Of a DNA stretch of 64,000 nucleotides, positions 26,477 through 60,371 are shown piece after piece. Source of the stretch: a virus (taxonomy: Duplodnaviria > Caudoviricetes); IMG/VR virus record IMGVR_UViG_3300036958_000333, positions 1 through 64,000 of that record. The stretch is one strand, 5' to 3'. The notes beneath the pieces are model-generated. The model worked only from the letters and a program-made list of their open reading frames with translations. It was not told the origin of the DNA and searched no databases. How positions within the stretch are numbered: position 1 is the stretch's first letter; each line of letters starts with the position of its first letter. Position numbers and translations under genes: made by a program.

Positions 26477-27979
26477 TTAAAATTCAGAAAAACGATCTAT
26501 TATTTCGTCTTTTAATTCTTGAGCGCATCTTTGTTTTAATATTTTCTTTTCGTTATCATTACAAAAAGAACTTGGTCCAATTTCATTATTTACAGCATCT
26601 ATATAAGCAGAAAATTTTCCTTCTTCTGTAAAATATAACCATTTAGGAACTTTATATAAATCTAATATTTCTTTATTCTTTTTAGCTATTTCGGTATCTA
26701 TGGAAATAGGAAAATAATTTTTTGATAAATATATACATAAATCATTGAAAAACGTTTTATATTCTTTATAAGAAGAATATTTTTTTGCTCTTCCTGTATT
26801 TTTATATCCAAGCAGTGTTACTGAAAAATCTTGTCTTGATAATTTAATTTTATCAAATATATAATTAAGTTCTTTTTTATTTTTAAATGATACTCCAGGT
26901 ATCATATGAAATGAAATTTTTGAATCTAAATATCTTTTTAAATCATAATCGGTATTTTTATTTTTAATAATATTATCAATTTTATCTATTAACATATCTG
27001 TCTCATCTATACAACTCACAGAAAAAGCCATTTTACCACAAAGTTTTAAATATTTTTTTAATTCTTTTTTATTATTAAGTATATTATAATTTTTTGTTGA
27101 AAAGTTTGGAATTATTCCATGATTTCTACATTCTTCTAAAATATATAAAAAATTAGGATGTTTTGTTGGATCACCACCACCAATAGCTACTTCAAATACT
27201 TTCAAACTTGACAGGGCTTTAATAATTTCAATTATATAATCTTCATCCGCATGTTTTCCAGATTTTTTAGAATCCATATAACAATATGGACAATTCGATT
27301 CACAATAATCTGTTATTTTCATATCAACAAGCTCTGGAGCAAAAGCTTTATCTGGAATTTTTTTATTATCATAAAAAGAAAATCTAATTTTCGTACCATC
27401 TTTTCTATCAAATAATGACCAATAATCGTATTTTTCATCTTTTCTACAAGTATAATCAGTATAAAATTTTAGACCTTCAAGGTTTTCAAATAATTTTCCT
27501 TTTTTATATAAAATATTTTCTTCATATTTAGATGTATTATCGTTTCCACCTAATATAATGACGTCTTTTCTTATTATAAATTTTTTAAAATCTTCAAAAA
27601 ATTCATCATCTATCATTGATTTACTGTAATAGTTCTTTGGAAAATAAATAACACTACTATGATCTACATAACCACTATCTATTTTAAGAGATTTTACATT
27701 TAATCCATACATTTTTTTTAATAAATTCGATTCACATTCGGTCATTTTATTTTCAAAATCTAAAAATTCATAAATATAACTAATAGATTTTTTTAAAAGT
27801 AAAGCTAAATATGATTCTTTTGATTTTTTAGATATCAATACAAAATCTTGCCATCCAAATTCTTTATCACTTGGACAGATATCTTTAGTTTCTTCTATTA
27901 ATTTTGGATCAACAACAATAATAGAATGAGAAGAACTACTATTAGTAGCAAAACCCACTCTAATATTATAAATTTTCAT
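26477..27979 (-). CDS. Radical SAM protein fused to an N-terminal RxGFxTNSSS domain
   Basis: CESNCPYC, AIGGGDPT, N-term IRVGFATNSSSSHS. Confidence 0.85.
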   Translation of the reverse strand: MKIYNIRVGFATNSSSSHSIIVVDPKLIEETKDICPSDKEFGWQDFVLISKKSKESYLALLLKKSISYIYEFLDFENKMTECESNLLKKMYGLNVKSLKIDSGYVDHSSVIYFPKNYYSKSMIDDEFFEDFKKFIIRKDVIILGGNDNTSKYEENILYKKGKLFENLEGLKFYTDYTCRKDEKYDYWSLFDRKDGTKIRFSFYDNKKIPDKAFAPELVDMKITDYCESNCPYCYMDSKKSGKHADEDYIIEIIKALSSLKVFEVAIGGGDPTKHPNFLYILEECRNHGIIPNFSTKNYNILNNKKELKKYLKLCGKMAFSVSCIDETDMLIDKIDNIIKNKNTDYDLKRYLDSKISFHMIPGVSFKNKKELNYIFDKIKLSRQDFSVTLLGYKNTGRAKKYSSYKEYKTFFNDLCIYLSKNYFPISIDTEIAKKNKEILDLYKVPKWLYFTEEGKFSAYIDAVNNEIGPSSFCNDNEKKILKQRCAQELKDEIIDRFSEF

Positions 27980-34379: not shown

Positions 34380-35837
34380 TTAGTTATAAGATAAAAATTT
34401 ATATTGTTTTATTGGAATTAATATATTTACTGTTGTTCCTTTATTTATTTTACTAAATATATTGATTTTTCCATTATGAAATTCTACTATTTTTTTACAC
34501 ATAAATAAACCTATTCCATTTCCTTGATATAAGCCGTCATGACACTTTTGAAACATTGAAAAAACTTTGTTTCTGAACCTTCCGTCAAAACCTATACCGT
34601 TATCTTTTATTGAAATTTTTACATAATCATCAAGCTTTTTATTTATAGTTATGTTTATTATTAAGTTTTCATTGTCTTTTTTAAATTTCATAGAATTATC
34701 TAAAATATTAACAAACAATTGTTCCAATATATTCTTATCACATTCTATATCAAAATCAATATTATTCTTTATAACTATCTTTGAATTTGTTTCATTTATT
34801 TTTAATGATAATAAATTAATCGAAGAATTTATTATATCATTAATATTATGATATTTAAAATCTATTAAATCTATTGACATTTTACATAATTTTGATATTC
34901 CTTTTATTAAATTTCGTATCTTATCTGCTGAATTTTTTATTAAACCAATGTTTTTTCTAGTTTTTTCATTTATTTCACTACTTTCTGAAATTATTTTATC
35001 AGAAAAAAATAATATTTTTCTCAATGGTTCTTTTAAATCATGAGATATAAAATTAGCAAAACTATATAATTCTTGATTTGATTTTTTTAATTCTTCATAA
35101 TAAACTTTCATTTGTTCATGAAATATTTTTTTTGATGTTATATCTCTTGCTATAGCTATAAACTTATTATGATCATTTGTTTTAAATATATTAAAATTAA
35201 TCCATCTATACGAACCATCAGTGTGTTTTATTCTTGCATCAAATTTTATACTTTTATAAATATTTAATTTATTAAATTCTTCTTCTATTATTTTTTTATC
35301 TAGTTGATGAGATAAGTTTAATATATTCTTATTAATTAAATTTTCTTTAAAAAACCCAAGGATTATTTTTGAACTTCCTGTTGTTTGTTCTATTATTTTT
35401 TCTTTATTAATTCTAAATACCATAAATGTTGGATTATTAAAAATTATTTCTTTTTCTTCATTACTAAATTTAAATGGAGATATATCGGTCAATATTCCAA
35501 AAATTAATGCAACTTTTCTATTATTATCGAATATTGGAGCAACTAGAACAATTGTTCGTATATTTTCTTTATCTTTTGAAAGAAAAACTTTTTCTGAAAC
35601 ATATACGTCTTCTTCTTCATTTTTTATTTTATTTAATCTAATATAAAGATCATCCCAACTACTTTTTGATAAAATATCTTTTAAATGTTTTTTTTTAAGC
35701 TCAGAACTACTATATCTCAATAATTTACAAAAATTTTTATTAAATTTTATTATTTTCCAATTAATATCAATTATTATCATTGATGATGGAAAAGTATTCC
35801 AAAAATTACATACATCAAAATTTATCTTACTAGTCAT
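34380..35837 (-). CDS. PAS-PAS sensor histidine kinase
   Basis: SHDLKEPLRKI (H box), NILDNSMKF (N), DNGIGF (G1), GNGIGL (G2), two PAS/PAC repeats, no TM. Confidence 0.92.
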   Translation of the reverse strand: MTSKINFDVCNFWNTFPSSMIIIDINWKIIKFNKNFCKLLRYSSSELKKKHLKDILSKSSWDDLYIRLNKIKNEEEDVYVSEKVFLSKDKENIRTIVLVAPIFDNNRKVALIFGILTDISPFKFSNEEKEIIFNNPTFMVFRINKEKIIEQTTGSSKIILGFFKENLINKNILNLSHQLDKKIIEEEFNKLNIYKSIKFDARIKHTDGSYRWINFNIFKTNDHNKFIAIARDITSKKIFHEQMKVYYEELKKSNQELYSFANFISHDLKEPLRKILFFSDKIISESSEINEKTRKNIGLIKNSADKIRNLIKGISKLCKMSIDLIDFKYHNINDIINSSINLLSLKINETNSKIVIKNNIDFDIECDKNILEQLFVNILDNSMKFKKDNENLIINITINKKLDDYVKISIKDNGIGFDGRFRNKVFSMFQKCHDGLYQGNGIGLFMCKKIVEFHNGKINIFSKINKGTTVNILIPIKQYKFLSYN

Positions 35838-36306: not shown

Positions 36307-39300
36307 TTAATACTCAAAATTTATAAAAAAATCTTTATAAGACTCCACTAAATTTTTCTTTACCTTACTATATTCCATATATCTATATATATTATATTTT
36401 TCAGTATTATTTGTTAAATATAAAGCTTCATCTATATTTATATAATTTATACCAGAAAATTTATAAACATCTTCGTAAAATGATGATACTATAACATCTG
36501 GATGTTCTTTTATTATATCTTTATAAGCATGAATAAATGCAAAATTATCACCAAGTCCCCCTGTTACTAATATCAACTTTGTTTTCCCTGGATATTTATT
36601 CCAAACCTTCATCTTCATATTAAAAACATTTTCATCATGATCCCATAAACTTTTATCACGATAACTCCTTATTCCTCCGCCACTTTCCCTAAAATGCCAT
36701 GTAATTATAGAACTATCTACTATTAATTTCCAACCGCTTCTTTTCATTTCATATGTAAATATAGTTTCCTCTCTATGACCAACTGGAGATAATTTTAAGC
36801 AATATCCGTGTTTTGATGCTTCTTTTCTATATAAAAAAGTACTATATAAATGATCTACTTCGTGTTTTCCTTCGTGTTTAACCCATTGACAATTAGGAAA
36901 AATAGATAAATCATTTATATTATTGTATGTAAAATTTTCTGGAATTCTTATATTTTGTAATGGATCTAATACCAATCCGGCAACTGCCCCAACATCATCT
37001 TTCATTTCTAATAATAATTTTTCTAAAACATTACTTTCAGCTAAATTGTCATCATCTAATCTCCATATATATTTATGTTTAGATATTTCTATTGATTTTT
37101 GATGATTTAAAACTTGACCTTTCTTTTCTCCAAATATAACACGCCACTCTATTCCATTTAAATCAAGATATTTAAATATATTTTCATATAAAGGGTTTTT
37201 TCTTAAATCTTCTTGGTCGCCATCATCAAATATTATTAGTTCTTTAGGTTTAACAGTTTGGTTTGCAATAGAAGTTATTGCTAGTGGTAAAGTCGTATTA
37301 TATCTATTTTTAGTTGAAATCATAGCAGTTACATCTGCATTATTAGTTATTAATTGTATGTTTTTTATGTCATCTTTTCTTTCAAATTTAAAAACTTTAT
37401 TATTATTATAAATAGTTTCCTCTTCTCCTTTTTCGTTTTTTTGTTTTGTATAAAAACTAACATTCCATATTTCTTTGTATCCTAAACTCATTATATAATC
37501 ATATAAATAATTTATTTCATATTTTGTTATTGGAGTTCCATGAATTTCTATAAATATTTTTTTAAATCTTTTTATCATTTTTTCATCACAAGACATTAAT
37601 ATCGGAAATTCAAATCCTTCACAATCAATTTTCAATATAATATCATTGTCATTTCTAAAATAAATGTTTAATATATCTTCTAGTGTAATTGTATAAGATA
37701 ATTTTTTTTCATTATTTATATTATTTATATCAACATTATCTTCTGAAACCATTGTGTTTTTTTCAATTTCTTCTAAATATACTATATTTTTACTTTTATC
37801 TGTAACTGCTACATTTATAGGTATTATGTTATTATATTTTTTTGTATTTTGTAAAAATAATTTGAAAGATTCAATATTAGGTTCTATTGAAACTATTTTA
37901 TTTGAACCATATTCTGCACATAATATAGAAAAAATACCATTATATGCACCTATGTCAAGAACATTTTTTTCAAAAACATCTTCTTTATTTAAAGAATATA
38001 AATTATTTTTAAATTCATCAAACACATAAGAATCTTGTGCTTTTAATTTTTCTATAAAACTTAAATCTAAGTTTAAATTATTAAAAACACCTAAATCATC
38101 TTTTTCTGTCATATTTACAATCCCTTTATCTCCATGTGTTCCAAGAATCTTTTTAACATATTTTGATTTTGTATTTTTAGAACATTCTTTTATAAATTGA
38201 TAATCATGATCAACAAAATTAGATTTTATATCATGTTCCCATTTATATGAAAATTTCTTCGCTAAGCTAGAATCAACCATAAAATTTAAACTATCTATAT
38301 CACCAAAAACAAACTCTCCTTCATTATGAGAAGAAGAAGGTATAATCTTTCCAAGCTCTACGTGTTCTATTTGACAATATGATATTTTATAATCTTTTTC
38401 GTTTATTATTTGAGATAACAACTCCCCAACATAGTTTTCATTAACAGTATTATCATCATCAACAAAACAAACAAATCCATTTTCTGGTATGATTTCTAAT
38501 ATTTTTTGCCTACATTTGCTTCCAAAAGCTCCTTCGTGTTTATCCAAATAATGATATTGAAATTCTATATCTGATTTTTTATTAAACTCATCAATTATAT
38601 GTTTTACCTTTTCATCATATCCATCTGCGCAAATATAAGATATTATATTTCTATATTTTTGTTTATTAATACTGTCTAGTGTTTTTCTTAATTTTAAATA
38701 TCTTTTATATGTTGGAGTTATTATATAAACTTTTTTACCATGTTTTTTAAATAATATTTGTAAATTTCTTTCTGTAATTTTATCCCAATCTTTTAAATCA
38801 AAAACTGTTCCTTCGGCTTTGTGATATATTGGGAAATCTCTACAATTAATATCATCTAATGGAACCTGGATTAATTTATATCCCTTATTTTCTGCTCTTA
38901 TACAAAAATCCATATCCTCGGCAAAACCTGGATTAAATATTTCATCAAGTAATCCTATTTCATCAAATATGTTTTTTTCAATCATGACGCAAAAAAATAA
39001 TAAAAATTTCCTGTTTATAATAGGACATCTTGATGCTAAAGGACCGGTTACTCCAACTTTGTCATTTTCTAAAAATGGTTTTTTGAGTATATTTATCCAT
39101 TGATTTTTTTCTTGATTCCTTAATATAGTATCATTATTAAGTAATATAATATAATTTCCATTAGATTGTTTTATTCCTTCATTTGTTGCTTTTGTATAAC
39201 CTAAAGGATCATCATACCATAACACTTTTATATTTTTTATTTTTTGATTATCGAGATATTCTTTGGTTCTATCTTTACATCCATTAGCAACTATAACTAT

Positions 39301-39405
39301 TTCAGTATCATTTAAATCAGTATATTCTATTATACTATTTAAACATGGAATAAGATTATCTTCTAAATGATTATAAGTAGGGATTATAATAGAATTCTTT
39401 ATCAA
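36307..39405 (-). CDS. Multidomain GT2-GT2-FkbM methyltransferase-GT2-GT9(N lobe) protein
   Basis: SIIIPTYN..LLNND..EDMD; ITPTY..FVDDD; LDIGAYNG..KIDCEG; RLDDD; terminal GGLGD. Confidence 0.85.
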   Translation of the reverse strand: MIKNSIIIPTYNHLEDNLIPCLNSIIEYTDLNDTEIVIVANGCKDRTKEYLDNQKIKNIKVLWYDDPLGYTKATNEGIKQSNGNYIILLNNDTILRNQEKNQWINILKKPFLENDKVGVTGPLASRCPIINRKFLLFFCVMIEKNIFDEIGLLDEIFNPGFAEDMDFCIRAENKGYKLIQVPLDDINCRDFPIYHKAEGTVFDLKDWDKITERNLQILFKKHGKKVYIITPTYKRYLKLRKTLDSINKQKYRNIISYICADGYDEKVKHIIDEFNKKSDIEFQYHYLDKHEGAFGSKCRQKILEIIPENGFVCFVDDDNTVNENYVGELLSQIINEKDYKISYCQIEHVELGKIIPSSSHNEGEFVFGDIDSLNFMVDSSLAKKFSYKWEHDIKSNFVDHDYQFIKECSKNTKSKYVKKILGTHGDKGIVNMTEKDDLGVFNNLNLDLSFIEKLKAQDSYVFDEFKNNLYSLNKEDVFEKNVLDIGAYNGIFSILCAEYGSNKIVSIEPNIESFKLFLQNTKKYNNIIPINVAVTDKSKNIVYLEEIEKNTMVSEDNVDINNINNEKKLSYTITLEDILNIYFRNDNDIILKIDCEGFEFPILMSCDEKMIKRFKKIFIEIHGTPITKYEINYLYDYIMSLGYKEIWNVSFYTKQKNEKGEEETIYNNNKVFKFERKDDIKNIQLITNNADVTAMISTKNRYNTTLPLAITSIANQTVKPKELIIFDDGDQEDLRKNPLYENIFKYLDLNGIEWRVIFGEKKGQVLNHQKSIEISKHKYIWRLDDDNLAESNVLEKLLLEMKDDVGAVAGLVLDPLQNIRIPENFTYNNINDLSIFPNCQWVKHEGKHEVDHLYSTFLYRKEASKHGYCLKLSPVGHREETIFTYEMKRSGWKLIVDSSIITWHFRESGGGIRSYRDKSLWDHDENVFNMKMKVWNKYPGKTKLILVTGGLGDNFAFIHAYKDIIKEHPDVIVSSFYEDVYKFSGINYINIDEALYLTNNTEKYNIYRYMEYSKVKKNLVESYKDFFINFEY

Positions 39406-39446: not shown

Positions 39447-41978
39447 TCAAAAATTTCCAAATATTTCATTTTCATCATTTATAGAAATTAACCCATTTGA
39501 TAAGACATAATTTCCACATTTTGTTTTTAAATCATAAGTTTTGCATTCGATATCTATTTTATCATATTTTAGATAGTTATTTAAAAATTTATGATTATCT
39601 GTGCAGATAAAATCATTGTACATTCTACCAGATAATGGATATAATGTTTCCTTACAGTATATATTAATTACTTCTGTTAGAATTTCTTTTCCATCTTTAA
39701 TACCAAAAACAGAATCACCGACTTTAAGATCTTTTATTTTAATTAGATTTCCAGGAAATTTTATTAACGTATTCCCGTCTAGACATTTATTATGTACAAG
39801 AAATCCATTTGCATAAAATGTTTCTGATGGACTTACTTTACTTAAATTATAAGTTTGAACATCACCTAAAACCTTTATCCATCCAATAATTTGTAAATAA
39901 CCATCAACTGTTTTTACATGATTTCCTAACTCTAATTTTTTTATTTCTAATTTTTCATTTCTATAATTTTGTGGATTTATGCTAGCCCATCCGTTATTTG
40001 TCATTATTGGATGTTCATCAGTTACTTTTAAAACTAAATCATTTTCAAATACAATATAGTAATAATGATCTCTAATAGGACTTTCTAAACTTTTAACCGT
40101 TCCGCCAATTACTTTATCTCCAATTATAATATCTTCTATATTTTTACACTCATTGTTTTCCATTAATATTTTTGTTCCAGCCAGAAAACAACATTCATAA
40201 TTTGTAAGAAGTCCATTTGAAAAATATAATTGATGAGCGGTTCCATAAAAATCTTCAAGATATAGATATTGTGAGATTCCAATATTTCCACTAACATCTT
40301 TATATCCAATTTCTGGCTGAATGTATCCGTTTATATATGGAGATGTGAATAAGCCCCAAAATAGTCCCCAGTCTTCCCCAACTCCTGGTTCACTTTCATA
40401 ACCATAAAAAGATGCATCATGTGAATTAATACATATATAAATGTTTCCATTTTTATAATTATAAACAATATCATTGATATAATAATATTCGCCAACGTCC
40501 CAGTCATATCTCCAATTAAAACCTAAACCAGAATATCCTGAATAACCGGATATACCAGAATAGCCGGATTTTCCAGAATAACCTGAAGTTCCTAAATATC
40601 CTGATTTTCCTGAATAACCAGATATACCTGAATATCCTATAAATGAAGATTGTGTTTCCCAAAAAGCCTCTCCAGAAACACCACACGATAATACATATCC
40701 AGAATTTGCTCCATTTGTTATAATTATTTTTTCGGTTCTTGTTGTTCCAAAAACATCACAAGTATATTCTGGATATCTATCTTCTCCAATACCAAAATAT
40801 CCTTCTCCTGTAATATATGCAACAGTTCTTTTGTCGATTTCAATATCACCAGTATAACCAGAATATCCAGACCCACAAGATAATAAAAATTTAAGAGTGG
40901 TTGGACAATTTACGTTTTCTCTACTTGTTCCATACCAATCTTGTTCAGCAGTACATTTTATATCAGCAGCATCTATTAATTTCCCACTGCTATAACTTCC
41001 TCTATATGTAACTGTTCCCAAATCTGTTCCGCTTGTTACTGGCAACATACTTTGATTGTTTCCAAATGTTTTTCCTAAAATAAAAACAGGAAACATTCCC
41101 ACATAACCTGAATTTCCAATTCCACTTTCTGTTCCATGTTGATATATTTGAATACTAGCATATTTAGTTGGATCATTTTGAGAAATAAAAATAGAAGGAT
41201 CTCCACCGCCATACTTATAACCACTTGTTCCTATAATTAATGTATCACTAATATTATTTAAATAAGTTACACCACTTGCTGGTATTCTATTGAAATATTG
41301 TATTCCAGCACCAGAATATCCAGATTTTCCGGAATAACCAAAATATCCTGAAATACCAGAATAACCAGAATATCCAGATATATTTTCTAAAAATAAATCC
41401 CAATAATCATAGTACGATCCTCCAATACCTGGTTCTGATCCAATATTTGATATATGATCTTCAATACAAATATATAAATTATTATTATGACTAATTATAT
41501 CATCAACATAATAATTTATTGATTCTTCCCACAAACTTTTCCATATTAATTTTTTACCAGAATACCCAGAATATCCAGATATACCAGAATAACCTGAATA
41601 TCCAGAAATACCAATTTCACCAGAATAACCAGATATACCAGAATAACCTGAATATCCGGATTCATTTTCATTAGACGATGAACATGTTGTCCATAATATT
41701 CCATTACATGCAAATATTTGTGATAATCCTGATTTGATAGTTGAAATTATATCTTCATTATCGTTTTTTATAATTAAAGAATAAGAAGAAGATGTATTTA
41801 TTATTGTATATTTTAATCCATTACAAGATTCTTCATTTGGTAATATAACATATTTGTCAGAATCTTTAGGTTCTAAAAATAATATTTGCTTATCTGATTC
41901 TAAAATTATTGTTTTATCATCGTTTAATTCTTCGGTAGAAGATTCTTCAAATATATTATTGTATTTTATATAAACCAT
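39447..41978 (-). CDS. GYS-repeat fibre-like protein (long type) with tandem C-terminal Hint domains
   Basis: (GYS)n tracts, two CBM5/12-like modules, CFLAGT..TDEH..LVHN-K-CLDGNT..TDNH..ISIN. Confidence 0.85.
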   Translation of the reverse strand: MVYIKYNNIFEESSTEELNDDKTIILESDKQILFLEPKDSDKYVILPNEESCNGLKYTIINTSSSYSLIIKNDNEDIISTIKSGLSQIFACNGILWTTCSSSNENESGYSGYSGISGYSGEIGISGYSGYSGISGYSGYSGKKLIWKSLWEESINYYVDDIISHNNNLYICIEDHISNIGSEPGIGGSYYDYWDLFLENISGYSGYSGISGYFGYSGKSGYSGAGIQYFNRIPASGVTYLNNISDTLIIGTSGYKYGGGDPSIFISQNDPTKYASIQIYQHGTESGIGNSGYVGMFPVFILGKTFGNNQSMLPVTSGTDLGTVTYRGSYSSGKLIDAADIKCTAEQDWYGTSRENVNCPTTLKFLLSCGSGYSGYTGDIEIDKRTVAYITGEGYFGIGEDRYPEYTCDVFGTTRTEKIIITNGANSGYVLSCGVSGEAFWETQSSFIGYSGISGYSGKSGYLGTSGYSGKSGYSGISGYSGYSGLGFNWRYDWDVGEYYYINDIVYNYKNGNIYICINSHDASFYGYESEPGVGEDWGLFWGLFTSPYINGYIQPEIGYKDVSGNIGISQYLYLEDFYGTAHQLYFSNGLLTNYECCFLAGTKILMENNECKNIEDIIIGDKVIGGTVKSLESPIRDHYYYIVFENDLVLKVTDEHPIMTNNGWASINPQNYRNEKLEIKKLELGNHVKTVDGYLQIIGWIKVLGDVQTYNLSKVSPSETFYANGFLVHNKCLDGNTLIKFPGNLIKIKDLKVGDSVFGIKDGKEILTEVINIYCKETLYPLSGRMYNDFICTDNHKFLNNYLKYDKIDIECKTYDLKTKCGNYVLSNGLISINDENEIFGNF

Positions 41979-41986
41979 AAGACACC

Positions 41987-44494
41987 TTAAAAATTTCCAA
42001 ATATTTCATTTTCGTCATTTATAGAAATCAATCCATTAAATAACATATAATTCCCACATTTTGTTTTTAAATCATACATTTCTTGTATAATATTTATTTT
42101 ATCATATTTTAAATTATTATTTAAAAATTTATGATTGTCTGTACAAACAAAATCATTATACATTCTACCAGACAATGGATTTAATGTTTCCTTACAATAT
42201 ATATTAATTACTTCTGTTAAAATTTCTTTTCCATTTTTAATACCAAAAACAGAATCACCAACCTTAAGATCTTTTATTTTAACTGAACTTCCTGGAACTT
42301 TTATTAATGTATTTCCATCTAAACATTTATTATGCACAAGAAATCCATTTGCATAAAATGTTTCTGACGGACTTACTTTGCTTAAATTATATGTCTGTAT
42401 ATCACCTAAAACCTTTATCCACCCAATAATTTGCAAATAACCATCAGTTGTTTTCACATAGTTTCCTAATTCTAATTTATTTACTTCTAATTTTTTATCT
42501 TTATAATTTTGTGGATTTATGCTAGCCCAACCATCACTTGTCATTATTGGATGTTCGTCAGTAATTTTTAATACTAAATCATTTTCAAATACAACATAAT
42601 AATAATGATCTCTAATTGGATTTTCTAAACTTTCAACAATTCCACCAATTACTTTATCTCCAACAATTATATCTTCTATATTTTTACATTCATTGTTTTC
42701 CATTAAGATTTTTGTTCCAGCTAAAAAACAACAAGTTGTAGAATAAGCTTTAAAAATGCCATTTGAAAATTTTAAAGTATAAGTTCTATCAAAGCCTCTA
42801 TATGTTATATCTTGTGTTTTTCCAATATTCCCATTAACATCTTTATATCCGCTTTCTGGTTGTATATATCCACCTGTACCCTTAGCTAAAGGACGCCAGT
42901 AATCTTTATTAGTAGGTAATATATATTGAATCGATGATTTAGAAATACAAACATAAGTATTTCCAATATAATATACTACATCTCCAGCTCTATAAATAAA
43001 ACTAGCAACAAATGACCCTCTCCATATTAATTCATTACCACTATAACCGCTTGTTCCAATGCCTGAATAACCTGATTTTCCTGAATATCCTGAATAACCA
43101 GATTTTCCTGAATAACCAGATTTTCCGGAATATCCTGAAGTTCCTGGAAAAGAGTATAATGATTTCCAAGAAGCTTCTCCAGAAACACCACAAGATAATA
43201 CATATCCAGAATTTGCTCCGTTTGTTATGATTATTTTTTCGGTTCTTGTTGTGCCAAAAACATCACATGTATATTCTGGATATTTATCTTTTCCAATACC
43301 AAAATATCCTTCACCTGTAATATATGCTATAGATCTTTTATCATTTTCAATATTTCCAGTATAACCAGAATATCCTGATCCGCAAGTTAACATAAATTTT
43401 ATATGAGACGGAGAATTTATTTTTTCTCCATTAACATTCCAATTTTGAGTAGTTGTACATTTTATATCAGCAGCATCTATTAATTTACCGTTACTATAAC
43501 TTCCTCTATATGAAACAGATCCCAAAGTAGTACCGCTTGTTACTGGTAATAAACTTTGATTATTTCCAAATGTTTTTCCTAGAACAAGAGATGAATATCG
43601 TCCTTTATATCCAGATGTTCCAATTCCACTTTCTGTTCCATGTTGATATACTTGAAAACTAGCATATTCTAATGGATTATTTTGAGAAATAAGAATAGAA
43701 ATATCTCCACCACCATATTTATAACCACTTGTTCCTATAATTAATGTGTCATTGATATTACTCATATATGTTGTTCCGCTTTCTGGTATTCTATCAAAAT
43801 ACTGTATTCCAACTCCAGTATATCCAGATTTTCCTGAATAACCAGAATATCCTGAATATCCTAAAATACCAGAATATCCAGAATATCCAGAATAGTTTTC
43901 TAAAAATATATTCCAATAGTTTTCATATTCTTCACCAACTCCTGGTTCTGAAATATCACTTGAAATATGATCTAAAACACAAACATATAGATTATTATTA
44001 TTACTAACTGTATAGTTAACAAAATAATACGCTGAATTTTTATGCCATGAACCAACCCATATTAATTTTTTACCAGAATACCCAGAATATCCAGATATAC
44101 CAGAATAACCTGAATATCCAGAAATACCAATTTCACCAGAATAACCAGATATACCAGAATAACCTGAATATCCAGATTCACTTTCATTAGATGACGAACA
44201 TGTTGTCCACAATATTCCATTACAGACAAATATTTGCGATAATCTGGCTTTGATAGTTGAAATTATATCTTCATTATCATTTTTTACAATTAAAGAATAA
44301 GAAGAAGATATATTTATTATTGTATATTTCAATCCATTACAATATTCTTCGTTTGGTAATATAACACTTTTATCAGAATCTTTAGGTTCTAAAAACAATA
44401 TTTGTTTATCTGATTCTAAAATTATTGTTTTATCATCGTTTAATTCTTCAGTAGAAGATTCTTCAAATATATTATTGTATTTTATATAAGCCAT
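41987..44494 (-). CDS. GYS-repeat fibre-like protein (long type) with tandem Hint domains
   Basis: Paralog of 39447-41978. Confidence 0.85.
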   Translation of the reverse strand: MAYIKYNNIFEESSTEELNDDKTIILESDKQILFLEPKDSDKSVILPNEEYCNGLKYTIINISSSYSLIVKNDNEDIISTIKARLSQIFVCNGILWTTCSSSNESESGYSGYSGISGYSGEIGISGYSGYSGISGYSGYSGKKLIWVGSWHKNSAYYFVNYTVSNNNNLYVCVLDHISSDISEPGVGEEYENYWNIFLENYSGYSGYSGILGYSGYSGYSGKSGYTGVGIQYFDRIPESGTTYMSNINDTLIIGTSGYKYGGGDISILISQNNPLEYASFQVYQHGTESGIGTSGYKGRYSSLVLGKTFGNNQSLLPVTSGTTLGSVSYRGSYSNGKLIDAADIKCTTTQNWNVNGEKINSPSHIKFMLTCGSGYSGYTGNIENDKRSIAYITGEGYFGIGKDKYPEYTCDVFGTTRTEKIIITNGANSGYVLSCGVSGEASWKSLYSFPGTSGYSGKSGYSGKSGYSGYSGKSGYSGIGTSGYSGNELIWRGSFVASFIYRAGDVVYYIGNTYVCISKSSIQYILPTNKDYWRPLAKGTGGYIQPESGYKDVNGNIGKTQDITYRGFDRTYTLKFSNGIFKAYSTTCCFLAGTKILMENNECKNIEDIIVGDKVIGGIVESLENPIRDHYYYVVFENDLVLKITDEHPIMTSDGWASINPQNYKDKKLEVNKLELGNYVKTTDGYLQIIGWIKVLGDIQTYNLSKVSPSETFYANGFLVHNKCLDGNTLIKVPGSSVKIKDLKVGDSVFGIKNGKEILTEVINIYCKETLNPLSGRMYNDFVCTDNHKFLNNNLKYDKINIIQEMYDLKTKCGNYMLFNGLISINDENEIFGNF

Positions 44495-45729
44495 TAAAAA
44501 TTTCCAAATATTTCATTTTCGTCATTTATAGAAATTAATCCATTAGATAATATATAACTACCACATTTTGTTTTTAGATCATAAGTTTTACAATCAATAT
44601 TTATTTTATCATAATTCAAATTATTATTTAAGAACTTATGATTTTCTGTACAAGCAAAACCATCATATATTCTACCAGGCAATGGATTTAATGTTTCTTT
44701 ACAATATATATTAATCACTTCGGTAATAATTTCTTTTCCATCTTTAATTCCAAATACAGAATCACCAATTTTAATATCTTTTATACATATTGGATTTGCG
44801 GCAGTTTCTATTAATGTATTTCCTTCTAAACATTTATTATGAACTAGAAATCCATTAGCATAAAACGTTTCTGACGGACTTACTTTGCTTAAATTATATG
44901 TTTGTATATCACCTAAAACTTTTATCCATCCAATTATTTGTAGATAACCATCAACTGTTTTTACATGATTTCCTAATTCTAATTTCTTTACTTCTAACTT
45001 TTTACTTTTATATTTTTGTGGGTTTATGCTAGCCCAACCATTGTTTGTCATTATTGGATGTTCATCAGTCATTTTTAAAACTAAATCATTTTCAAATACA
45101 ATATAATAATAATGATCTCTAATTGGATTCTCAAGACTTTCAACTATTCCACCAATTATTTTATCTCCAATTATTATATCTTCTATATTTTTACATTCAT
45201 TGTTTTCCATTAATATTTTTGTTCCAGCAAGAAAACAACATTCTAGCAAATATTGATAATATGTCAAAATTCCATCTTTGAAACCAATTTGATGTAAAGG
45301 TTGTCCAATATCGTCATAAATTGTCATATTATATATTAGTGTTACGCCAGAAGTTCCGTCAGATGATTTATATCCGCCTGTTGGTTTCAAATAACCATCA
45401 ACATATGGAGCAGATGTTCCACTATATCCTGAAATACCAGAATATCCAGAATAACCAGATTTACCAGAATATCCACTATCGCCAGAAATACATTGTAAAA
45501 ATAATTCCCAATAATCATTTTCTCCACCTGATTCTGATCCACCTTCTGTTTCATGAGCAATAATACAGATATAAATTTTACCATTGTATGATACTAAATC
45601 ATTTACTTCATAACTTCCTTCACCATTAAAATAAGGTCCTTTCCAATTCCATGTTATATCTTTGCCAGAATAACCTGAATATCCAGATACAGATTTTCCT
45701 ATAGAATTAAAATTTATTAACGATCCCAT
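44494..45729 (-). CDS. GYS-repeat fibre-like protein (short type) with tandem Hint domains
   Basis: INFNSIGKS start, one CBM-like module, same Hint cassette. Confidence 0.85.
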   Translation of the reverse strand: MGSLINFNSIGKSVSGYSGYSGKDITWNWKGPYFNGEGSYEVNDLVSYNGKIYICIIAHETEGGSESGGENDYWELFLQCISGDSGYSGKSGYSGYSGISGYSGTSAPYVDGYLKPTGGYKSSDGTSGVTLIYNMTIYDDIGQPLHQIGFKDGILTYYQYLLECCFLAGTKILMENNECKNIEDIIIGDKIIGGIVESLENPIRDHYYYIVFENDLVLKMTDEHPIMTNNGWASINPQKYKSKKLEVKKLELGNHVKTVDGYLQIIGWIKVLGDIQTYNLSKVSPSETFYANGFLVHNKCLEGNTLIETAANPICIKDIKIGDSVFGIKDGKEIITEVINIYCKETLNPLPGRIYDGFACTENHKFLNNNLNYDKINIDCKTYDLKTKCGSYILSNGLISINDENEIFGNF

Positions 45730-45753
45730 TTTTAACCTTTATTTCACTACATC

Positions 45754-47448
45754 TTAAAAATTTCTAAATATTTCGTTTTCATCATTTATAGAAATTAACT
45801 CATTAGACAATATATAATTTCCACATTTCGTTTTTAAATCATAAGTATCACATTCAATGTCTATTTTATCATATTTTAAATTATTATTTACAAAAATATG
45901 ATTATCTGTACAAATAAAATTTCTATACATTCTACCAGGTAGTGAATATAATGACTCTTTTTTATAAATATTAATAACTTTTGTAACAACTTCTTTTCCA
46001 TCTTTAATTCCAAATACAGAATCACCGACTTTAATATCTTTTATTTTAATTGGATCTCCAGGAACTTTTATCAATGTATTTCCATCTAAGCATTTGTTAT
46101 GAACTAGAAACCCATTGGCATAAAATGTTTCTGATGGACTTACTTTACTTAAATTATAAGTTTGAACATCACCTAAAACCTTTATCCACCCAATAATTTG
46201 TAAATAACCATCAGTTGTTTTTACATAATTTCCCAATTCTAATTTTTTTACTTCTAATTTTTTACTTTTATATTTTTGTGGGTTTATACTAGACCACCCA
46301 TCTCTTGTCATTATTGGATGTTCATCAGTCATTTTTAAAACTAAATCATTTTCAAATACAATATAATAATAATGATCTCTAATTGGATTTTCTAAACTTT
46401 CAACAATTCCACCAATTACTTTATCTCCAATTATTACATCTTCTATATTTTTACATTCATTGTTTTCCATTAATATTTTTGTTCCAGCAAGAAAACAACA
46501 TTCGGAACCATAATATATCAATAATCCATCAATAAAATTAAACATATGTCTAACGCTATATTCAGGATCAAATATACTTATAACATCAAGTGGCGATACT
46601 CCAGAGTTTCCTGTAGTTGCTTTATATCCACTAAATGGTTGTAAATAACCATCAACATATGGAGCAGATGTTCCGCTGTATCCTGAAATACCACTATAAC
46701 CAGATATACCAGAATACCCACTTGTACCAGCTGCTCCAGAATAACCAGAAATACCAGAATAACCAGAAATACCAGAATAACCACTTGTACCAGCTGCTCC
46801 AGAATAACCAGAAATACCAGAATAACCACTTGTTCCAACAATTCCAGAATAACCAGAAATACCTGAATGACCTGTTTCTCCAGAATATCCAGAAATTCCA
46901 GAATAACCACTTGTACCAGCTGCTCCAGAATAACCAGAAATACCAGAATAACCAGATATATTAGATTCTCCTGAATAACCTGATATTCCACTATAACCAG
47001 ATTCTCCTGAATAACCTGATACTCCACTATAACCAGATTCTCCGGATACGCCAGTTTCTCCTGGTAAACCATCTTTTCCAGAATATCCAGACATTCCAGA
47101 ATAACCAGATTCACCAGAATAACCAGATATGTTTTCTAGAAACAAATCCCAAAATATATATTCTCCGCTACCACCAGGTTCTGTAATATCTGAACCATGA
47201 TCTTCAATACAAATATATAAATTATTATTATGACTAACTATATCATCAATCAAATACATTCCATAACTTGTATTCCAAGATCCTCTCCATTCTAATTTTT
47301 TACCTGAATAACCTGATATTCCACTATAACCAGATTCTCCGGATACGCCAGTTTCTCCTGGTAAACCATCTTTTCCAGAATATCCAGAATATCCTGATTC
47401 AGATTTTCCTATAGAATTAAAATTTATTGCAGATCCAGTTAATACCAT
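45754..47448 (-). CDS. GYS-repeat fibre-like protein (short type, expanded repeat) with tandem Hint domains
   Basis: About 150-aa GxS tract, same Hint cassette. Confidence 0.85.
   Translation of the reverse strand: MVLTGSAINFNSIGKSESGYSGYSGKDGLPGETGVSGESGYSGISGYSGKKLEWRGSWNTSYGMYLIDDIVSHNNNLYICIEDHGSDITEPGGSGEYIFWDLFLENISGYSGESGYSGMSGYSGKDGLPGETGVSGESGYSGVSGYSGESGYSGISGYSGESNISGYSGISGYSGAAGTSGYSGISGYSGETGHSGISGYSGIVGTSGYSGISGYSGAAGTSGYSGISGYSGISGYSGAAGTSGYSGISGYSGISGYSGTSAPYVDGYLQPFSGYKATTGNSGVSPLDVISIFDPEYSVRHMFNFIDGLLIYYGSECCFLAGTKILMENNECKNIEDVIIGDKVIGGIVESLENPIRDHYYYIVFENDLVLKMTDEHPIMTRDGWSSINPQKYKSKKLEVKKLELGNYVKTTDGYLQIIGWIKVLGDVQTYNLSKVSPSETFYANGFLVHNKCLDGNTLIKVPGDPIKIKDIKVGDSVFGIKDGKEVVTKVINIYKKESLYSLPGRMYRNFICTDNHIFVNNNLKYDKIDIECDTYDLKTKCGNYILSNELISINDENEIFRNF
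46675..47130 (-). repeat. 9-bp-period low-complexity tract coding G-x-S triplets
   Basis: Iterated CCAGAATAA/CCAGAAATA units. GYSGKDGLPGETGVSGESGYSG is also duplicated near 47320-47390. Confidence 0.85.
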
Positions 47449-47456
47449 TTCTTACC

Positions 47457-48599
47457 TCACGTAATATTATTATATATAACAATCCATTCTAACTTATAGT
47501 TATTAGAATCTATACTACTAGAAAAAAATACATCAAATCCATTATTTGATTTATTTCTTATTATATATGTATATTGAGATGGATATAAATCAATAGAATT
47601 GCTTAAATTTATATTTATTGAATAATTAGTATCTAAAAAAGAAAAATCAAAATCTACATGAACAAATGAATCACCAATATTAATATCTTTTATTCCATTC
47701 TGAAAACTTTTTAAATAAATAACATGTCCTCTATAATTATGAAAAAACCCAGAAGAACTTGATGTAGAAAAAAATAAAGGCTTAGATACATGATATTCCT
47801 CAGTAGGCTCTGTTAATGTTAATTTTCCATCTTCTTCATCACTAAGATAATAAATTTTTCCACTTGTTAAATCTGATAATCCTGAAATATACCCTTCTGT
47901 TAATAAAATAAATTCATTTTCATTTTTTATCTCTATAACAACTCCAATCACTTCTGAATTTTCTATAGAATCAGCTTTAGATTTTACATAAGAAGTTCCG
48001 TTATGTCTTAAAACATCTAAAACTTCAAATTCATGATCTTCCTGTGTTATTTTTAATAATGTTCCATTAGTATTGGCAGTTTCAGGTATTAAATATCCTC
48101 TAAAATTAAAGAACATACCTGAATTTGAAGAATCAGCTATTAATAATGGCTTAGAAACACGACCTATTTCAGTTGGTTCTATTTCAGTTAACATTCCAGC
48201 ATCAGTATCACTTAAATAGTATACTGTTCCTGGAACTAATGAATATAAAGTTATATCTTGAATTCTTCCTTGTAATAGTAAATAAAAATTATCTTCATCT
48301 ATTACTTTTGTTATTATTCCAATTGCTTCTGAATTATCTTCTGTATCGGCTTTAGCCAATACATATCCATCTACTATATCATATCTTACTATATAACCAA
48401 CCTGTCCAACAGTAAACCCATGACCTGGTTGATATATTTTAAATTTTTCTACAGATCCACCACCGGTTTCTTCAATTTTATCTAAAAATTTTTGAAAATC
48501 AATAAATTGAAGTCCAGTTCCTCTTTTTGCTTTTTGAACTACAATGTAGTCTGGAGGATAATCACAATAATATTCATTTGGCCATTTTCTAATTACCAT
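47457..48599 (-). CDS. Probable virion protein with two tandem beta domains
   Basis: Internal duplication HxFxV..YVxxKAD..NSExIG..YYLSD..GxLT..EPT..VSKPL..GxFxNxRG. Confidence 0.7.
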   Translation of the reverse strand: MVIRKWPNEYYCDYPPDYIVVQKAKRGTGLQFIDFQKFLDKIEETGGGSVEKFKIYQPGHGFTVGQVGYIVRYDIVDGYVLAKADTEDNSEAIGIITKVIDEDNFYLLLQGRIQDITLYSLVPGTVYYLSDTDAGMLTEIEPTEIGRVSKPLLIADSSNSGMFFNFRGYLIPETANTNGTLLKITQEDHEFEVLDVLRHNGTSYVKSKADSIENSEVIGVVIEIKNENEFILLTEGYISGLSDLTSGKIYYLSDEEDGKLTLTEPTEEYHVSKPLFFSTSSSSGFFHNYRGHVIYLKSFQNGIKDINIGDSFVHVDFDFSFLDTNYSININLSNSIDLYPSQYTYIIRNKSNNGFDVFFSSSIDSNNYKLEWIVIYNNIT

Positions 48600-54521: not shown

Positions 54522-55650
54522 ATATCCTATTTCTTTCAAGAATATTTATGAAGGAGTTGTTTGTTCTCAAGATTCTAGAATATCTGTATTTTGGACCGGG
54601 CCATTAGGAGCTCCAGCAGGAACAAAAGATTCTCAATGGTTAATAGAACCTGGAGAAATAAAATTATATAATAATTCATCTGAGCCATATAAAAATATGC
54701 AAAATATTACTTTTATTTGTGAATTTGATTCTGAAACAAATCTTGCCCCTGGGCCAGGTGGATATAATGCAAAACAATCTCCAGGATCTGATCCAAGACC
54801 ATTGTTATTAAAAGAATCTACTGAAATAGTTCCTTCTGATAAGTATATAAGTTATCAACAAAGATCGGATTTTACAGATGGAGAAGTTTTATCTGGTACA
54901 GGAGATGGAACAATATTTTTAACATCAGCTAAATTAGAGATTTGGATACCATTTTGTAATTATCCTCAAGATGAAGAATCAGAACTTGTAGATGAATATA
55001 TTATACCACCAGAAAGAGATGATCCTAATTTTTCTAATTGGGTCGGTGGATCTAATCGCGACGAAGGATTTGTTGATAAATACTATAAAAATCAAATATT
55101 ACATATAAAAACGTCTGGAAATAATCAAGGATATTATATTATTAAAAGTGTTTCATGGAATGGATCAGAATTTGAAATTACAATAGATCCTACTGGAGAA
55201 TATGGAGGATTGTATAAAGAAAATGGATTGTCTGGAAACATATTAGCAAATATGCCAGGATCAAAAAGATTTGAGATAGAATATATAGATGGAATATATT
55301 ATTGTGACGGTTGGGTTGATACTTTAGGAGAAAATACTGATAGACCTGGGTATTATTATTATACAAAACCTAATAATATAACCCAACAAGCCGTAGATAT
55401 TCAAACAGAATTACAAGAAAATGCAAGTTCGTATACGTGTGAGATAATTATAAACCCAGTAGGATCAAATCTTAAAGAATATATACCACTACATATTTTT
55501 CAAATTGTTCCATATTGGCTAATTGAAAGTAAAATTGATTCTAATGATATTATACCGGCATGGAAATTTACATTAAAAAGTATAGTAAGAGAAATAGATA
55601 AATTAAGTTCAAGAATTAAAAATTATTGGGAAAATCTTGATGGATCATAA
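54514..55650 (+). CDS. Acidic Gly/Pro-rich probable virion protein
   Basis: Start moved to ATG 54514; composition resembles structural proteins. Confidence 0.6.
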   Translation: MNKYPISFKNIYEGVVCSQDSRISVFWTGPLGAPAGTKDSQWLIEPGEIKLYNNSSEPYKNMQNITFICEFDSETNLAPGPGGYNAKQSPGSDPRPLLLKESTEIVPSDKYISYQQRSDFTDGEVLSGTGDGTIFLTSAKLEIWIPFCNYPQDEESELVDEYIIPPERDDPNFSNWVGGSNRDEGFVDKYYKNQILHIKTSGNNQGYYIIKSVSWNGSEFEITIDPTGEYGGLYKENGLSGNILANMPGSKRFEIEYIDGIYYCDGWVDTLGENTDRPGYYYYTKPNNITQQAVDIQTELQENASSYTCEIIINPVGSNLKEYIPLHIFQIVPYWLIESKIDSNDIIPAWKFTLKSIVREIDKLSSRIKNYWENLDGS

Positions 55651-57442
55651 TTTTATAAATTTAGAAGAAAATAAAAATAAAATATTATGTTCTTCTGGAT
55701 CTAATTATTTTGTTGTAAAATCTGATGGATCTGTTAATAGATGTTTCAGTGATTTAACTTATCTTGGTGATATGTTAGAATATCCTAGTTTTGTTAAAAA
55801 AAAAGCAACAGAATGTGTTGTTGGATATAAATGCGACGCTTCATGTGATCAAATGTTTTGTACTCAATGGAATAATCCAAGAAAAAGAGATTTCTATGAA
55901 AATAATCCTGTTTGTATAAAATGGAAAGATAATGATCCAAATAATTTAAATTTAAATGGATCTTTTTTTGTAATTTATTTAACAGATAAGTGTAATTTTA
56001 ATTGTCCATATTGTTGTAATTATTATCCAGACGGTATAAAAGAACGGCCAATAAATTATAATGAAAGAACAACGAGCGATTGGATTAAGTTTTTTGATAT
56101 ATTAAAAAATAATTTAAATATTGTTCAATTAAATTTTAATGGAGGAGAACCATTATTAAGAGATGATATAGATATTATATTATTTAATGCTTTAAAAAAT
56201 AATTTTGATTGCTCTTTAGTAACAAATTTTTCTGTATTTAAAAGTTTAGAAAAAATATTAAATAAAGATATTAATAATAAAGAAAATTTACAATTTTCTA
56301 TAACATTGCATCCAATAAATACTATATACAATTTTAATAAAATATTAAAATATATATTATTATTTAAAGAATGTGGATATAAAATAAGGATATCTTTATT
56401 AGGTTGGAAAGAAAACTTAAAATACCATGAAAGATATAAAATAATATTTAATGAAATAGGAATAGATTATTGGTTAAAGTGGTGTGGTGGATATTCGTAT
56501 GATCAAAATACTATTGATTATTTGATAAAAGAAGGTGCCGGAAAATCAACGGCAAAATATTTATATGAAAACAATTTATTAGATAACAATACTAGTAATT
56601 ATAAATGTACTGCTGGAATAGATTATTTTATAATAGATAATGAAGGAATGGCTTATAAATGTTATGGAGTATATCATAATAAAAAAAATATATTATTTAA
56701 TTTAAATAATTATAAAAACTTTAATTTTAATAATTTAAATTCAAATTGTAATAAAATGAATTGTTTTAAAGATTGTGAAGGATATAAAGTAGAAGTATGG
56801 AATAATAAAAATATAAAAATATGGAATAACATTTATTGGAGACCTAGATTAGATTCAATCAAAGATATAAGTTTAGACAATATATTTTTTCAAATAGATA
56901 TGGTATTAGGATGTTTTAATAATTGTCCTTATTGTTTTATCGAAAACAAGAATTGTAGAAATAAAAAAGATATAAAATTTATTGATACAGAAAAATTATT
57001 AAATTTAATAAAACATATTTCAAATATAAAAAAAGGATATAAATTTATTAATATATCTGGATCAGGAGAACAATTAATACATAATGATTTTGTAAAAATA
57101 TGTAATACTTTTACAGAATATGGTTTTAATATTGAATTAATAACTTCTGGACTTTTATATAGTAAAAAATTATTTTTATTAAAAAATAAAGAAAAAATAA
57201 ATATTATAATAAGTTTTCATCCATCTAGTAAAAACTGGAATTATAATAAAATGAATACATTATTATATAATCTAAAAAATGAAAAATTTAGATCATTAAA
57301 TTCTACTTTCGTAAAATATGAAGGAAATATGAGTTTTTATAACGAAATAAAAAACTTAACAAAAAAATACAAAATGTTTATGCACGAAATAGAACATAGA
57401 AAAAAAATCGAATTTATAAAACAACAAAATAATAATTTATAA
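55637..57442 (+). CDS. Double radical SAM protein: [aux Fe-S]-[rSAM]-[aux Fe-S]-[rSAM]
   Basis: CNFNCPYC..GGEP and CFNNCPYC..GSGE, each preceded by CxxG...xG.V/A..C...C..C...C. Confidence 0.85.
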   Translation: MMDHNFINLEENKNKILCSSGSNYFVVKSDGSVNRCFSDLTYLGDMLEYPSFVKKKATECVVGYKCDASCDQMFCTQWNNPRKRDFYENNPVCIKWKDNDPNNLNLNGSFFVIYLTDKCNFNCPYCCNYYPDGIKERPINYNERTTSDWIKFFDILKNNLNIVQLNFNGGEPLLRDDIDIILFNALKNNFDCSLVTNFSVFKSLEKILNKDINNKENLQFSITLHPINTIYNFNKILKYILLFKECGYKIRISLLGWKENLKYHERYKIIFNEIGIDYWLKWCGGYSYDQNTIDYLIKEGAGKSTAKYLYENNLLDNNTSNYKCTAGIDYFIIDNEGMAYKCYGVYHNKKNILFNLNNYKNFNFNNLNSNCNKMNCFKDCEGYKVEVWNNKNIKIWNNIYWRPRLDSIKDISLDNIFFQIDMVLGCFNNCPYCFIENKNCRNKKDIKFIDTEKLLNLIKHISNIKKGYKFINISGSGEQLIHNDFVKICNTFTEYGFNIELITSGLLYSKKLFLLKNKEKINIIISFHPSSKNWNYNKMNTLLYNLKNEKFRSLNSTFVKYEGNMSFYNEIKNLTKKYKMFMHEIEHRKKIEFIKQQNNNL

Positions 57443-60177: not shown

Positions 60178-60371
60178 GATAATTTAATCCTTTCATGTAT
60201 TTTTGGTATAGCGGAAACAATTATGTTTTCACCTTTATATAATATTGAAATATTTGTTTTTTCATTTTCTTTTAATATTCTTAAAAATTGAATAAAATTA
60301 TCCCTTAAATCATAAGGAACGTAATACTCCTTATAAACAAATTTATTTATATATTTATTAAACTTTTTCAT
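60165..60371 (-). CDS. Small protein with MKKFNKYIN leader
   Basis: TAATG junction like those in the 1-4.4 kb array. Confidence 0.55.
   Translation of the reverse strand: MKKFNKYINKFVYKEYYVPYDLRDNFIQFLRILKENEKTNISILYKGENIIVSAIPKIHERIKLSCLN

Follow-up and report, generated by a model that had tools for sequence, protein, structure and literature searches.

A tandem Hint cassette at the C-terminus of four fibre-like phage proteins: a candidate self-removing processing module

Why would four neighbouring genes for fibre-like proteins all end in the same pair of Hint domains, with hardly anything behind these domains to release? The question is raised by the window analysed here, i.e. the whole stretch of 64,000 nucleotides (nt) that forms positions 1 to 64,000 of the IMG/VR virus record IMGVR_UViG_3300036958_000333, the source of which we treat as an AT-rich jumbo phage of ~273 kb. 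The four genes are co-oriented on the minus strand, span positions 39447-47448 and are spaced by 0-24 bases. We consider it rather probable, if far from assured, that the double Hint acts as a processing module of the C-terminus that cuts itself off, a departure that would expose a hypervariable fibre tip.

Layout and maintenance of the cassette

The C-terminal 247 amino acids (aa) of the four paralogs align without gaps at 84-85% identity. The order in this cassette is Cys(-1), a Hint domain of 134 aa (Hint-1), one Lys, a second Hint domain of 103 aa (Hint-2) and a 9-aa tail, DENEIF(G/R)NF. All four copies carry the motifs CFLAGT...TDEH...TYNL...FYANGFLVHN in Hint-1 and CL(D/E)GNT...T(D/E)NH...YDL...LISIN in Hint-2. 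The original prediction, made from the sequence before the present analysis, had described these cassettes as free of indels, which the alignment confirms, and arithmetic from the stop codons confirms the positions that it gave for the ends of the Cys1 codons of Hint-1 (40190, 42730, 45237 and 46497). The window holds just these four copies, which find each other in tblastn at E <=1e-143, so that their likeness is not due to chance. The genes and their cassettes are arranged as follows:

39447-41978, minus strand: fibre paralog 1, 843 aa; the N-terminal ~100 aa are conserved, and the further parts are collagen-like GYS runs, CBM_5_12-like modules, an untyped central domain, a tip that varies and, last, the double-Hint cassette
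39789-40190, minus strand: Hint-1 of paralog 1, 134 aa from Cys1 to VHN; +1 Lys codon at 39786-39788
39450-39785, minus strand: Hint-2 and tail of paralog 1; Hint-2, 103 aa, at 39477-39785, and the 9-aa tail DENEIFGNF at 39450-39476
41987-44494, minus strand: fibre paralog 2, 835 aa; architecture of paralog 1, to which its N-terminal 104 aa are 92% identical
42329-42730, minus strand: Hint-1 of paralog 2; +1 Lys codon at 42326-42328
41990-42325, minus strand: Hint-2 and tail of paralog 2; Hint-2 itself at 42017-42325
44494-45729, minus strand: fibre paralog 3, 411 aa; one CBM_5_12-like module and a brief collagen-like run, besides tip and cassette
44836-45237, minus strand: Hint-1 of paralog 3; +1 Lys codon at 44833-44835
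44497-44832, minus strand: Hint-2 and tail of paralog 3; Hint-2 itself at 44524-44832, the sequence used for the structure model
45754-47448, minus strand: fibre paralog 4, 564 aa; of the four, it has the most extended collagen-like region (Pfam Collagen, E 8e-27)
46096-46497, minus strand: Hint-1 of paralog 4; +1 Lys codon at 46093-46095
45757-46092, minus strand: Hint-2 and tail of paralog 4; Hint-2 itself at 45784-46092, tail DENEIFRNF

The stop codon of paralog 3 and the start codon of paralog 2 overlap by one base. According to Pfam, all four proteins contain collagen-like Gly-X-Y runs, mostly GYS, with interspersed CBM_5_12-like modules (in paralog 1, Collagen E 4e-9 and CBM_5_12 E 1.6e-6), and their likeness to tail-fibre families of PHROGs runs through the collagen-like regions. 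At the other end of the proteins, paralogs 1 and 2 share the conserved N-terminal ~100 aa.

Pairwise synonymous divergence (dS) between the cassettes amounts to 0.3-0.7, and their similarity therefore does not stem from recent duplication or gene conversion. Both Hint halves are under purifying selection, the ratio of nonsynonymous to synonymous divergence (dN/dS) being 0.09-0.19 in Hint-1 and 0.15-0.45 in Hint-2. These values bear on the idea that the cassette is a selfish element, an intein-like mobile unit that spread among the paralogs without benefit to the phage. The N-terminal half of Hint-2 does resemble a fragment of a phage UvsW intein (31% identity), but the cassette has no homing endonuclease and no C-extein to restore, and it takes a terminal position instead of lying inside a conserved site. 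The dS range, together with the low dN/dS, indicates long-term maintenance in all four copies, and the two-Hint unit is also found at the end of unrelated proteins, secreted or fibrous ones, from distant cellular lineages and from a further phage-like contig. A selfish nature of the cassette appears very improbable to us.

The most variable part of the paralogs is the segment directly before Cys1: compared with the 411-aa paralog, the ~60 residues ahead of Cys1 are 53%, 33% and 29% identical, while the cassette reaches about 85%. Public data contain strains nearly identical to the phage (P0168, P0005), which differ from it exclusively in the region of the carbohydrate-binding modules (CBM), with unchanged cassettes; a processing module that stays constant beside binding parts that vary would fit this. 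The variants comprise three clustered substitutions in the 843-aa protein (EDHIS to VDYLS) and a duplicated CBM-plus-collagen unit, which yields a 487-aa version of the 411-aa protein. Judging from the sequences, such differences in the shaft modules would fit variation in receptor binding.

Fold and identity of the two domains

That both halves are Hint domains, as had been proposed, is upheld by profile matches, by profile-profile alignment and by predicted structures. A Hint-1 family profile built from 50 relatives matches, among solved structures, the BIL2 domain of Tetrahymena BUBL (E 4e-22), the C. thermocellum BIL domain 2lwy (E 3e-18) and the Hint region of 8w20_A (E 3e-16; 8W20 is a structure cited in the Streptomyces umbrella toxin paper), followed by ordinary mini-inteins. 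In Foldseek, an AlphaFold2 model of the whole cassette, with a predicted local distance difference test score (pLDDT) of 77, retrieves nothing but Hint, intein or BIL structures, among them BUBL BIL2 (6y75/6tmm, E 8e-8), the gp41-1 intein and the C. thermocellum BIL domain 2lwy (E 5e-6). The Foldseek matches of Hint-2 modelled alone (pLDDT 86) are all Hint or intein folds, with 2lwy and 6tmm as the best (E 3e-5); a non-Hint fold of the second domain, an outcome named beforehand as speaking against the proposal, is not what this model shows. With hhalign, Hint-2 aligns to the Hint-1 family over its N-terminal half (probability 96.8%, E 2.8e-10). Homologs of the cassette exceed the Pfam cut-offs for PF01079 (41-49 vs 29.7 bits), Hint_2 (40.3 vs 28.4) and PT-HINT (34.5 vs 27.7). 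A predicted complex of three cassette copies scored 0.28 against a mark of 0.42, a result that bears neither way on a role as trimerising chaperone.

By the features of its sequence Hint-1 would be classed with the A-type BIL domains, to which the original prediction had likened it: it has Cys1, the block-B motif TDEH and, as its last residues, His-Asn, and position +1 is taken by the non-nucleophilic Lys in place of Cys, Ser or Thr, with all copies reading LVHN before this Lys. Hint-2, on the same grounds, is a short Hint endowed with the N-terminal machinery only, i.e. Cys1, TxNH and the block-F Tyr-Asp. The expectation that it cleaves after a terminal Asn was not borne out. Among homologs, the column matching the terminal Asn of the phage varies between N, C, F, G and S or is missing, and there is no penultimate His; in two of them (P0028 and P0036) Hint-2 stops right after block F. 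It is because this Asn is unconserved and the last strands are missing in two homologs that we describe Hint-2 as an N-terminal-only Hint.

In 12 double-cassette sequences, 34 of 252 columns are invariant, among them T62, H65, H138-N139-K140-C141, N204-H205 and Y224-D225. Cys1 and the block-B TxxH of either half show no or hardly any variation across these sequences. This pattern matters for a second alternative, in which the two Hint folds are retained as a distal knob with a structural or binding role or as a conditional switch, the catalytic-looking residues being kept for folding. Phage fibres usually face the receptor with their C-terminus, the distal end, and non-cleaving domains derived from Hint do exist; the family profile matches the AXH domain of Ataxin-1 (E 2e-10), and the Pfam AXH model scores 51 bits in the homolog P0023. 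Nevertheless, the invariant columns comprise the nucleophile, the block-B Thr and His and the block-G His-Asn, as expected for catalysis and not for a scaffold. Furthermore, receptor-binding tips normally differ between paralogs and strains, whereas the cassette is the most constant part of these proteins. We regard a retained tip as quite unlikely; like the selfish element, it fits poorly with the pattern of conservation and with the distribution of the cassette.

Distribution of the double cassette and of the Hint-1 family

Tandem Hints joined as HN-K-C do turn up in phage metagenomes, as the search proposed with the original prediction revealed when run on IMG/VR. In total we have 14 double-cassette sequences, namely the four paralogs and ten homologs (P0009, P0017, P0019, P0155, L126, P0015, P0023, P0028, P0035 and P0036). 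The junction reads HN-K-C in 13 of them and HNAKC in P0015, and their Hint-2 keeps Cys1, T-x-N-H and the block-F Tyr-Asp. P0009 is 51% identical and lies on a 265-kb contig with cellular genes; P0017 comes from a 17-kb contig that looks like phage and has an SU10-type adaptor, P0019 is encoded among cellular-looking genes, and P0155 and L126 derive from metagenome-assembled genomes of Myxococcota. Homologs of Hint-1 belong to proteins of phages, DPANN archaea, Patescibacteria, Myxococcota and Bacteroidota that are secreted or fibrous. The tail motif DExx(I/V)F is confined to the nearest relatives.

Hint-2 is tied to its partner: every Hint-2-type sequence scoring below 1e-20 is preceded by Hint-1. 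A word-index search with Hint-2 alone returned just the phage's own protein, and a Hint-2 alignment added only P0155 and P0156. The succession of Hint-1 and a short Hint-2 type is much rarer than Hint-1 alone but does recur, and then closes long proteins that are fibrous or secreted. In an exhaustive search with the cassette, 2505 representative proteins were found at E <=1e-3, most of which match Hint-1 alone and many of which carry 2-7 copies. Species-representative genomes with members of the family belong to DPANN archaea, Patescibacteria, Bdellovibrionota, Bacteroidota, Myxococcota, Planctomycetota and others. Besides uncultured phages, the carriers include lineages of small-celled or predatory organisms. 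Judged by these searches, the Hint-1 subfamily is very large and very common, and its pairing with Hint-2 is rare.

The residues on either side of Hint-1 were counted in the best 150 of the 2505 family members. After His-Asn comes Lys in 164 of the 218 domains and Arg in 17 (K or R in 181/218), and the Lys is kept whatever follows, be it a further Hint, a large domain, a linker rich in Gly, Pro or Cys, or a stop codon; VHNK is the very end of several proteins. The notion that the Lys is a special one-residue insert between two Hints fails on these counts, which include domains with and without a second Hint. Since it is conserved irrespective of what follows, we take the Lys to be the Hint-1 subfamily's own +1 residue. 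The Cys at -1, described as invariant, is so among the four paralogs only. In homologs the residue before Cys1 varies freely, an outcome named in advance as counting against the proposal: it is Ser in 88, Cys in 32, Gly in 24 and Thr in 16 of 198 domains, and C, E, T or S in the other double-cassette proteins.

An alignment search of IMG/VR yielded 124 viral loci that encode the Hint-1 type; a scan with a single cassette sequence found no relatives there. About 18 of the 66 IMG/VR open reading frames (ORFs) examined end in VHNK and a stop codon, among them podovirus tail or virion proteins of two recognisable types. Virion proteins of 2200-2900 aa from uncultured phages (L007, L010, L016, L027, L035, L039, L066) contain 1-4 VHN(K/R) Hints between an N-terminal part of ~1400 aa and a conserved C-terminal domain of ~600 aa that starts with (K/R)..DPLAQ(S/T)F. 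In some of them two to four Hints are joined as HN(K/R)-C, and their placement looks like Hint-mediated splitting or splicing of a polyprotein. In cultured phage records, as searched with tblastn, the Hint-1 family is almost absent, a typical VHNK Hint of IMG/VR giving a single partial hit. The cassette matches only T4-like UvsW helicase genes in these records; one of these matches appeared to span the junction between the two Hints, and we rejected it as the N-terminal half of an intein aligned to Hint-2, with a spurious extension.

Some cellular proteins carry 4-7 VHNK Hints head to tail, 0-5 residues apart (L108, P0006, P0010 and P0016), and some of these arrays then run into Pro-rich or collagen-like tails. 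L108 belongs to a cultured strain of Mucilaginibacter angelicae, and this protein offers a cultivable system in which the purpose of Hint arrays could be tested.

Possible function of the cassette

Downstream of Hint-1 there is, as predicted, no toxin and no real extein, but only Hint-2 and nine residues before the stop codon. The cassette should therefore act on the fibre itself or be a removable module, and a Hint at the extreme C-terminus of a phage protein would have nothing to release but the protein upstream. C-terminal Hints on phage structural proteins, the constancy of the cassette and the hypervariability of the segment ahead of it would all fit a self-removing module. According to reviews, what BIL domains yield in the absence of a nucleophile at +1 is chiefly products cleaved at the N- and the C-terminus (PMC7664689; PMC7765530).

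What the analysis shows is the identity of the two domains, their catalytic motifs with the conservation of these, and where the cassette occurs; from these features we infer the cleavage, its order, the part of the +1 Lys and the reason for a second Hint in the following sequence of events. The fibres, presumably trimeric and collagen-like with carbohydrate-binding modules along the shaft, would be made as precursors with a two-Hint C-terminus. After folding or assembly, Hint-1 would form a thioester at the Cys(-1)/Cys1 bond and cyclise Asn134, upon which the cassette would leave the fibre and the hypervariable tip of ~50 aa upstream would become its free distal end. The +1 Lys might provide the amine that resolves the Hint-1 thioester, or it might be an active-site residue, and Hint-2 might remove itself from a fibre-Lys product or make a second, independent cut. 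In functional terms the cassette would be a self-removing pro-domain or assembly cap that does the job of an S74 chaperone by another fold and another chemistry.

Several observations weigh against this reading. On the four phage proteins the Pfam Hint models remain below their gathering cut-offs (Hom_end_hint 26-30 vs 32.1 bits; Hint_2 27-28.3 vs 28.4). The models of the cassette rest on alignments of 12 sequences, and the relative arrangement of the domains in them is uncertain (predicted template-modelling score 0.54; pLDDT <50 at the junction). More important, a double cut by Hint-1 would set Hint-2 free with just a Lys, and the strictly conserved Cys1 and TxNH of Hint-2 would then be without purpose; the conserved HN-K-C junction is therefore not explained by simple cleavage. 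It likewise leaves the single conserved Lys of proteins that end in HNK and a stop codon unexplained. The conserved terminal Lys, and an invariant K-C junction followed by a full N-terminal catalytic set, hint at a coupled reaction.

Such a coupled reaction could be a thioester relay. Hint-1 would pass the C-terminal acyl group of the fibre to the amine of the +1 Lys, in a peptide or isopeptide bond, and leave by Asn cyclisation; Hint-2 would convert the Lys-Cys bond into a new thioester, to be captured by an external amine or hydroxyl. The chains would end up cross-linked within the fibre trimer, or the fibre covalently attached to another virion protein or to a molecule of the host surface. 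Among solved structures BUBL BIL2 is closest to Hint-1, and its authors report that it links a Lys epsilon-amine to the C-terminus by an isopeptide bond and conjugates its N-terminal cargo to substrates (PMC8616854). The prevalence of Lys at +1 (164/218, with Arg in 17/218), retained even where it is the last residue, suggests a chemical role, and a coupled two-step reaction would explain better than simple cleavage why even distant homologs show no change in HN-K-C or in the N-terminal catalytic residues of Hint-2. However, Arg, found at +1 in those 17 domains, is a poor acyl acceptor, and the Lys need not be a terminal acceptor, given that many family members carry long Gly-, Pro- or Cys-rich sequences or large domains past HNK. 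In addition, the residue at -1, the would-be acyl donor, varies freely, and BIL domains are reported to yield mainly cleavage products. On balance a relay seems unlikely to us. If it existed, it would amount to enzyme-free protein ligation on a virus particle and, by extension, the VHNK family of phages, DPANN archaea and Patescibacteria would be engaged in BUBL-like, lysine-directed conjugation, a generalisation for which our expectation is correspondingly low.

Genomic setting

The four fibre-like proteins are encoded on a contig of 272,848 nt. The window has a G+C content of ~21%, three tRNA genes and many small ORFs without known families. A giant-virus origin, suggested by the 21% GC, the DUF4116 repeats and the collagen-like genes, was set aside in favour of a jumbo phage on the ground of the 272,848-nt contig. 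The neighbours of the fibre genes are:

36307-39405, minus strand: downstream neighbour, 1032 aa; GT2 glycosyltransferase domains and an FkbM-type methyltransferase, co-oriented with the fibre genes
47457-48599, minus strand: upstream neighbour, 380 aa; 8 bases from paralog 4, co-oriented, no named family

The 1032-aa protein might be an enzyme that glycosylates the fibres, perhaps by adding methylated sugars to the Ser- and Tyr-rich collagen-like proteins; the collagen-like protein BclA of Bacillus is glycosylated with methylated sugars. The gene of the 380-aa protein is probably part of the same transcription unit as the fibre genes. Within this protein a unit of ~130 aa is duplicated (...AIG(I/V)(I/V)...Y(Y)LSD...G.LT..EPTE...VSKPL...). 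The co-oriented block that includes the fibre genes further contains a PAS-PAS histidine kinase with HisKA and HATPase_c (34380-35837, minus strand), with no response regulator seen adjoining.

Elsewhere in the window, DUF4116-repeat proteins are present as five paralogs (3-4406 and 60371-61843, both minus strand), four of them in tandem at the left end. The tRNA genes are tRNA-Ile with the anticodon TAT, which reads AUA (5105-5179, minus strand), and tRNA-Arg(TCT) and tRNA-Leu(TAA) (20895-21068); all three tRNAs decode codons that end in A, as suits a genome with 21% GC. Two large radical SAM proteins are encoded, one of 500 aa (26477-27979, minus strand) and one of 601 aa with two radical-SAM-like stretches (55637-57442, plus strand).

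Significance of the cassette

A literature search on tandem or C-terminal Hints of phage fibres returned no paper on the paired cassette, the VHNK motif or Hint arrays, and no experimental study of the Hint-1 subfamily. The statement that no described system has this layout holds in the narrow sense, for the pair of Hint-1 and Hint-2; in the wider sense it does not, C-terminal Hints being common on phage and surface proteins. With 247 aa and four natural variants, the cassette is a compact test case for learning whether such Hints cut or also ligate. Either outcome would explain the maturation of a large class of phage fibres and microbial surface proteins, and lysine-directed ligation, if true, would be a useful tool in protein engineering.

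Comparison with known systems

A canonical intein is inserted in a conserved host protein, has a Cys, Ser or Thr nucleophile at +1 and restores a functional C-extein by splicing, but here +1 is Lys, and Hint-1 is followed only by Hint-2 and nine residues before the stop codon. The Peptidase S74 chaperone is comparable solely in its proposed role, that of a C-terminal assembly module that may cut itself off; Pfam and PHROGs gave no S74 match in the four fibre proteins, and the cassette has the Hint fold, which is unrelated to S74. PT-HINT domains of polymorphic toxins are closer, as related Hints are found near the C-terminus of long filamentous secreted proteins (8w20_A at E 3e-16; in P0009, PT-HINT at 34.5 bits with a cut-off of 27.7). 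However, PT-HINT precedes the toxin that it is thought to release, whereas neither a toxin nor other cargo follows Hint-2, and the genes downstream encode the next paralog or the glycosyltransferase. BUBL1 of Tetrahymena thermophila provides, with its BIL2 domain (6y75, 6tmm), the best structure and profile match to Hint-1. This domain lies between two ubiquitin-like domains, while in the phage the cargo is a collagen-like fibre, the downstream partner consists of Hint-2 and nine residues, and the flanks, a fibre tip and a second Hint, contain no ubiquitin-like domains. One defining feature fails in each case, and the two Hints therefore belong neither to the canonical inteins nor to the PT-HINT modules, the S74 chaperones or the BUBL loci.

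The remaining two systems each resemble one half of the cassette. Like B-type BIL and Hedgehog-type domains (Hint_2, PF13403; Hint, PF01079), Hint-2 keeps Cys1 and TxxH and is devoid of a conserved terminal His-Asn, the condition of Hints that activate just their N-terminal junction, and in the homolog P0009 it is at the start of Hint-2 that the Hint_2 model scores 40.3 bits (cut-off 28.4). It differs from them in its length of only ~103 aa, in having no sterol-recognition or adduct-recruiting region, and in always following HN-K. The A-type BIL domains, reportedly described by Amitai in 2003 and Dassa in 2004, are the counterpart of Hint-1, which has Cys1, a block-B TxxH, a terminal His-Asn, no Cys, Ser or Thr at +1 and no endonuclease, and which sits in a variable surface protein: as a domain of 134 aa without homing endonuclease it closes the fibre paralogs beside their hypervariable segment. 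What distinguishes Hint-1 from the A-type domains is the strongly conserved +1 Lys of its VHNK motif, the fact that it often comes last in the protein or forms arrays of head-to-tail copies and, in the phage, a second Hint of a different type directly behind it.

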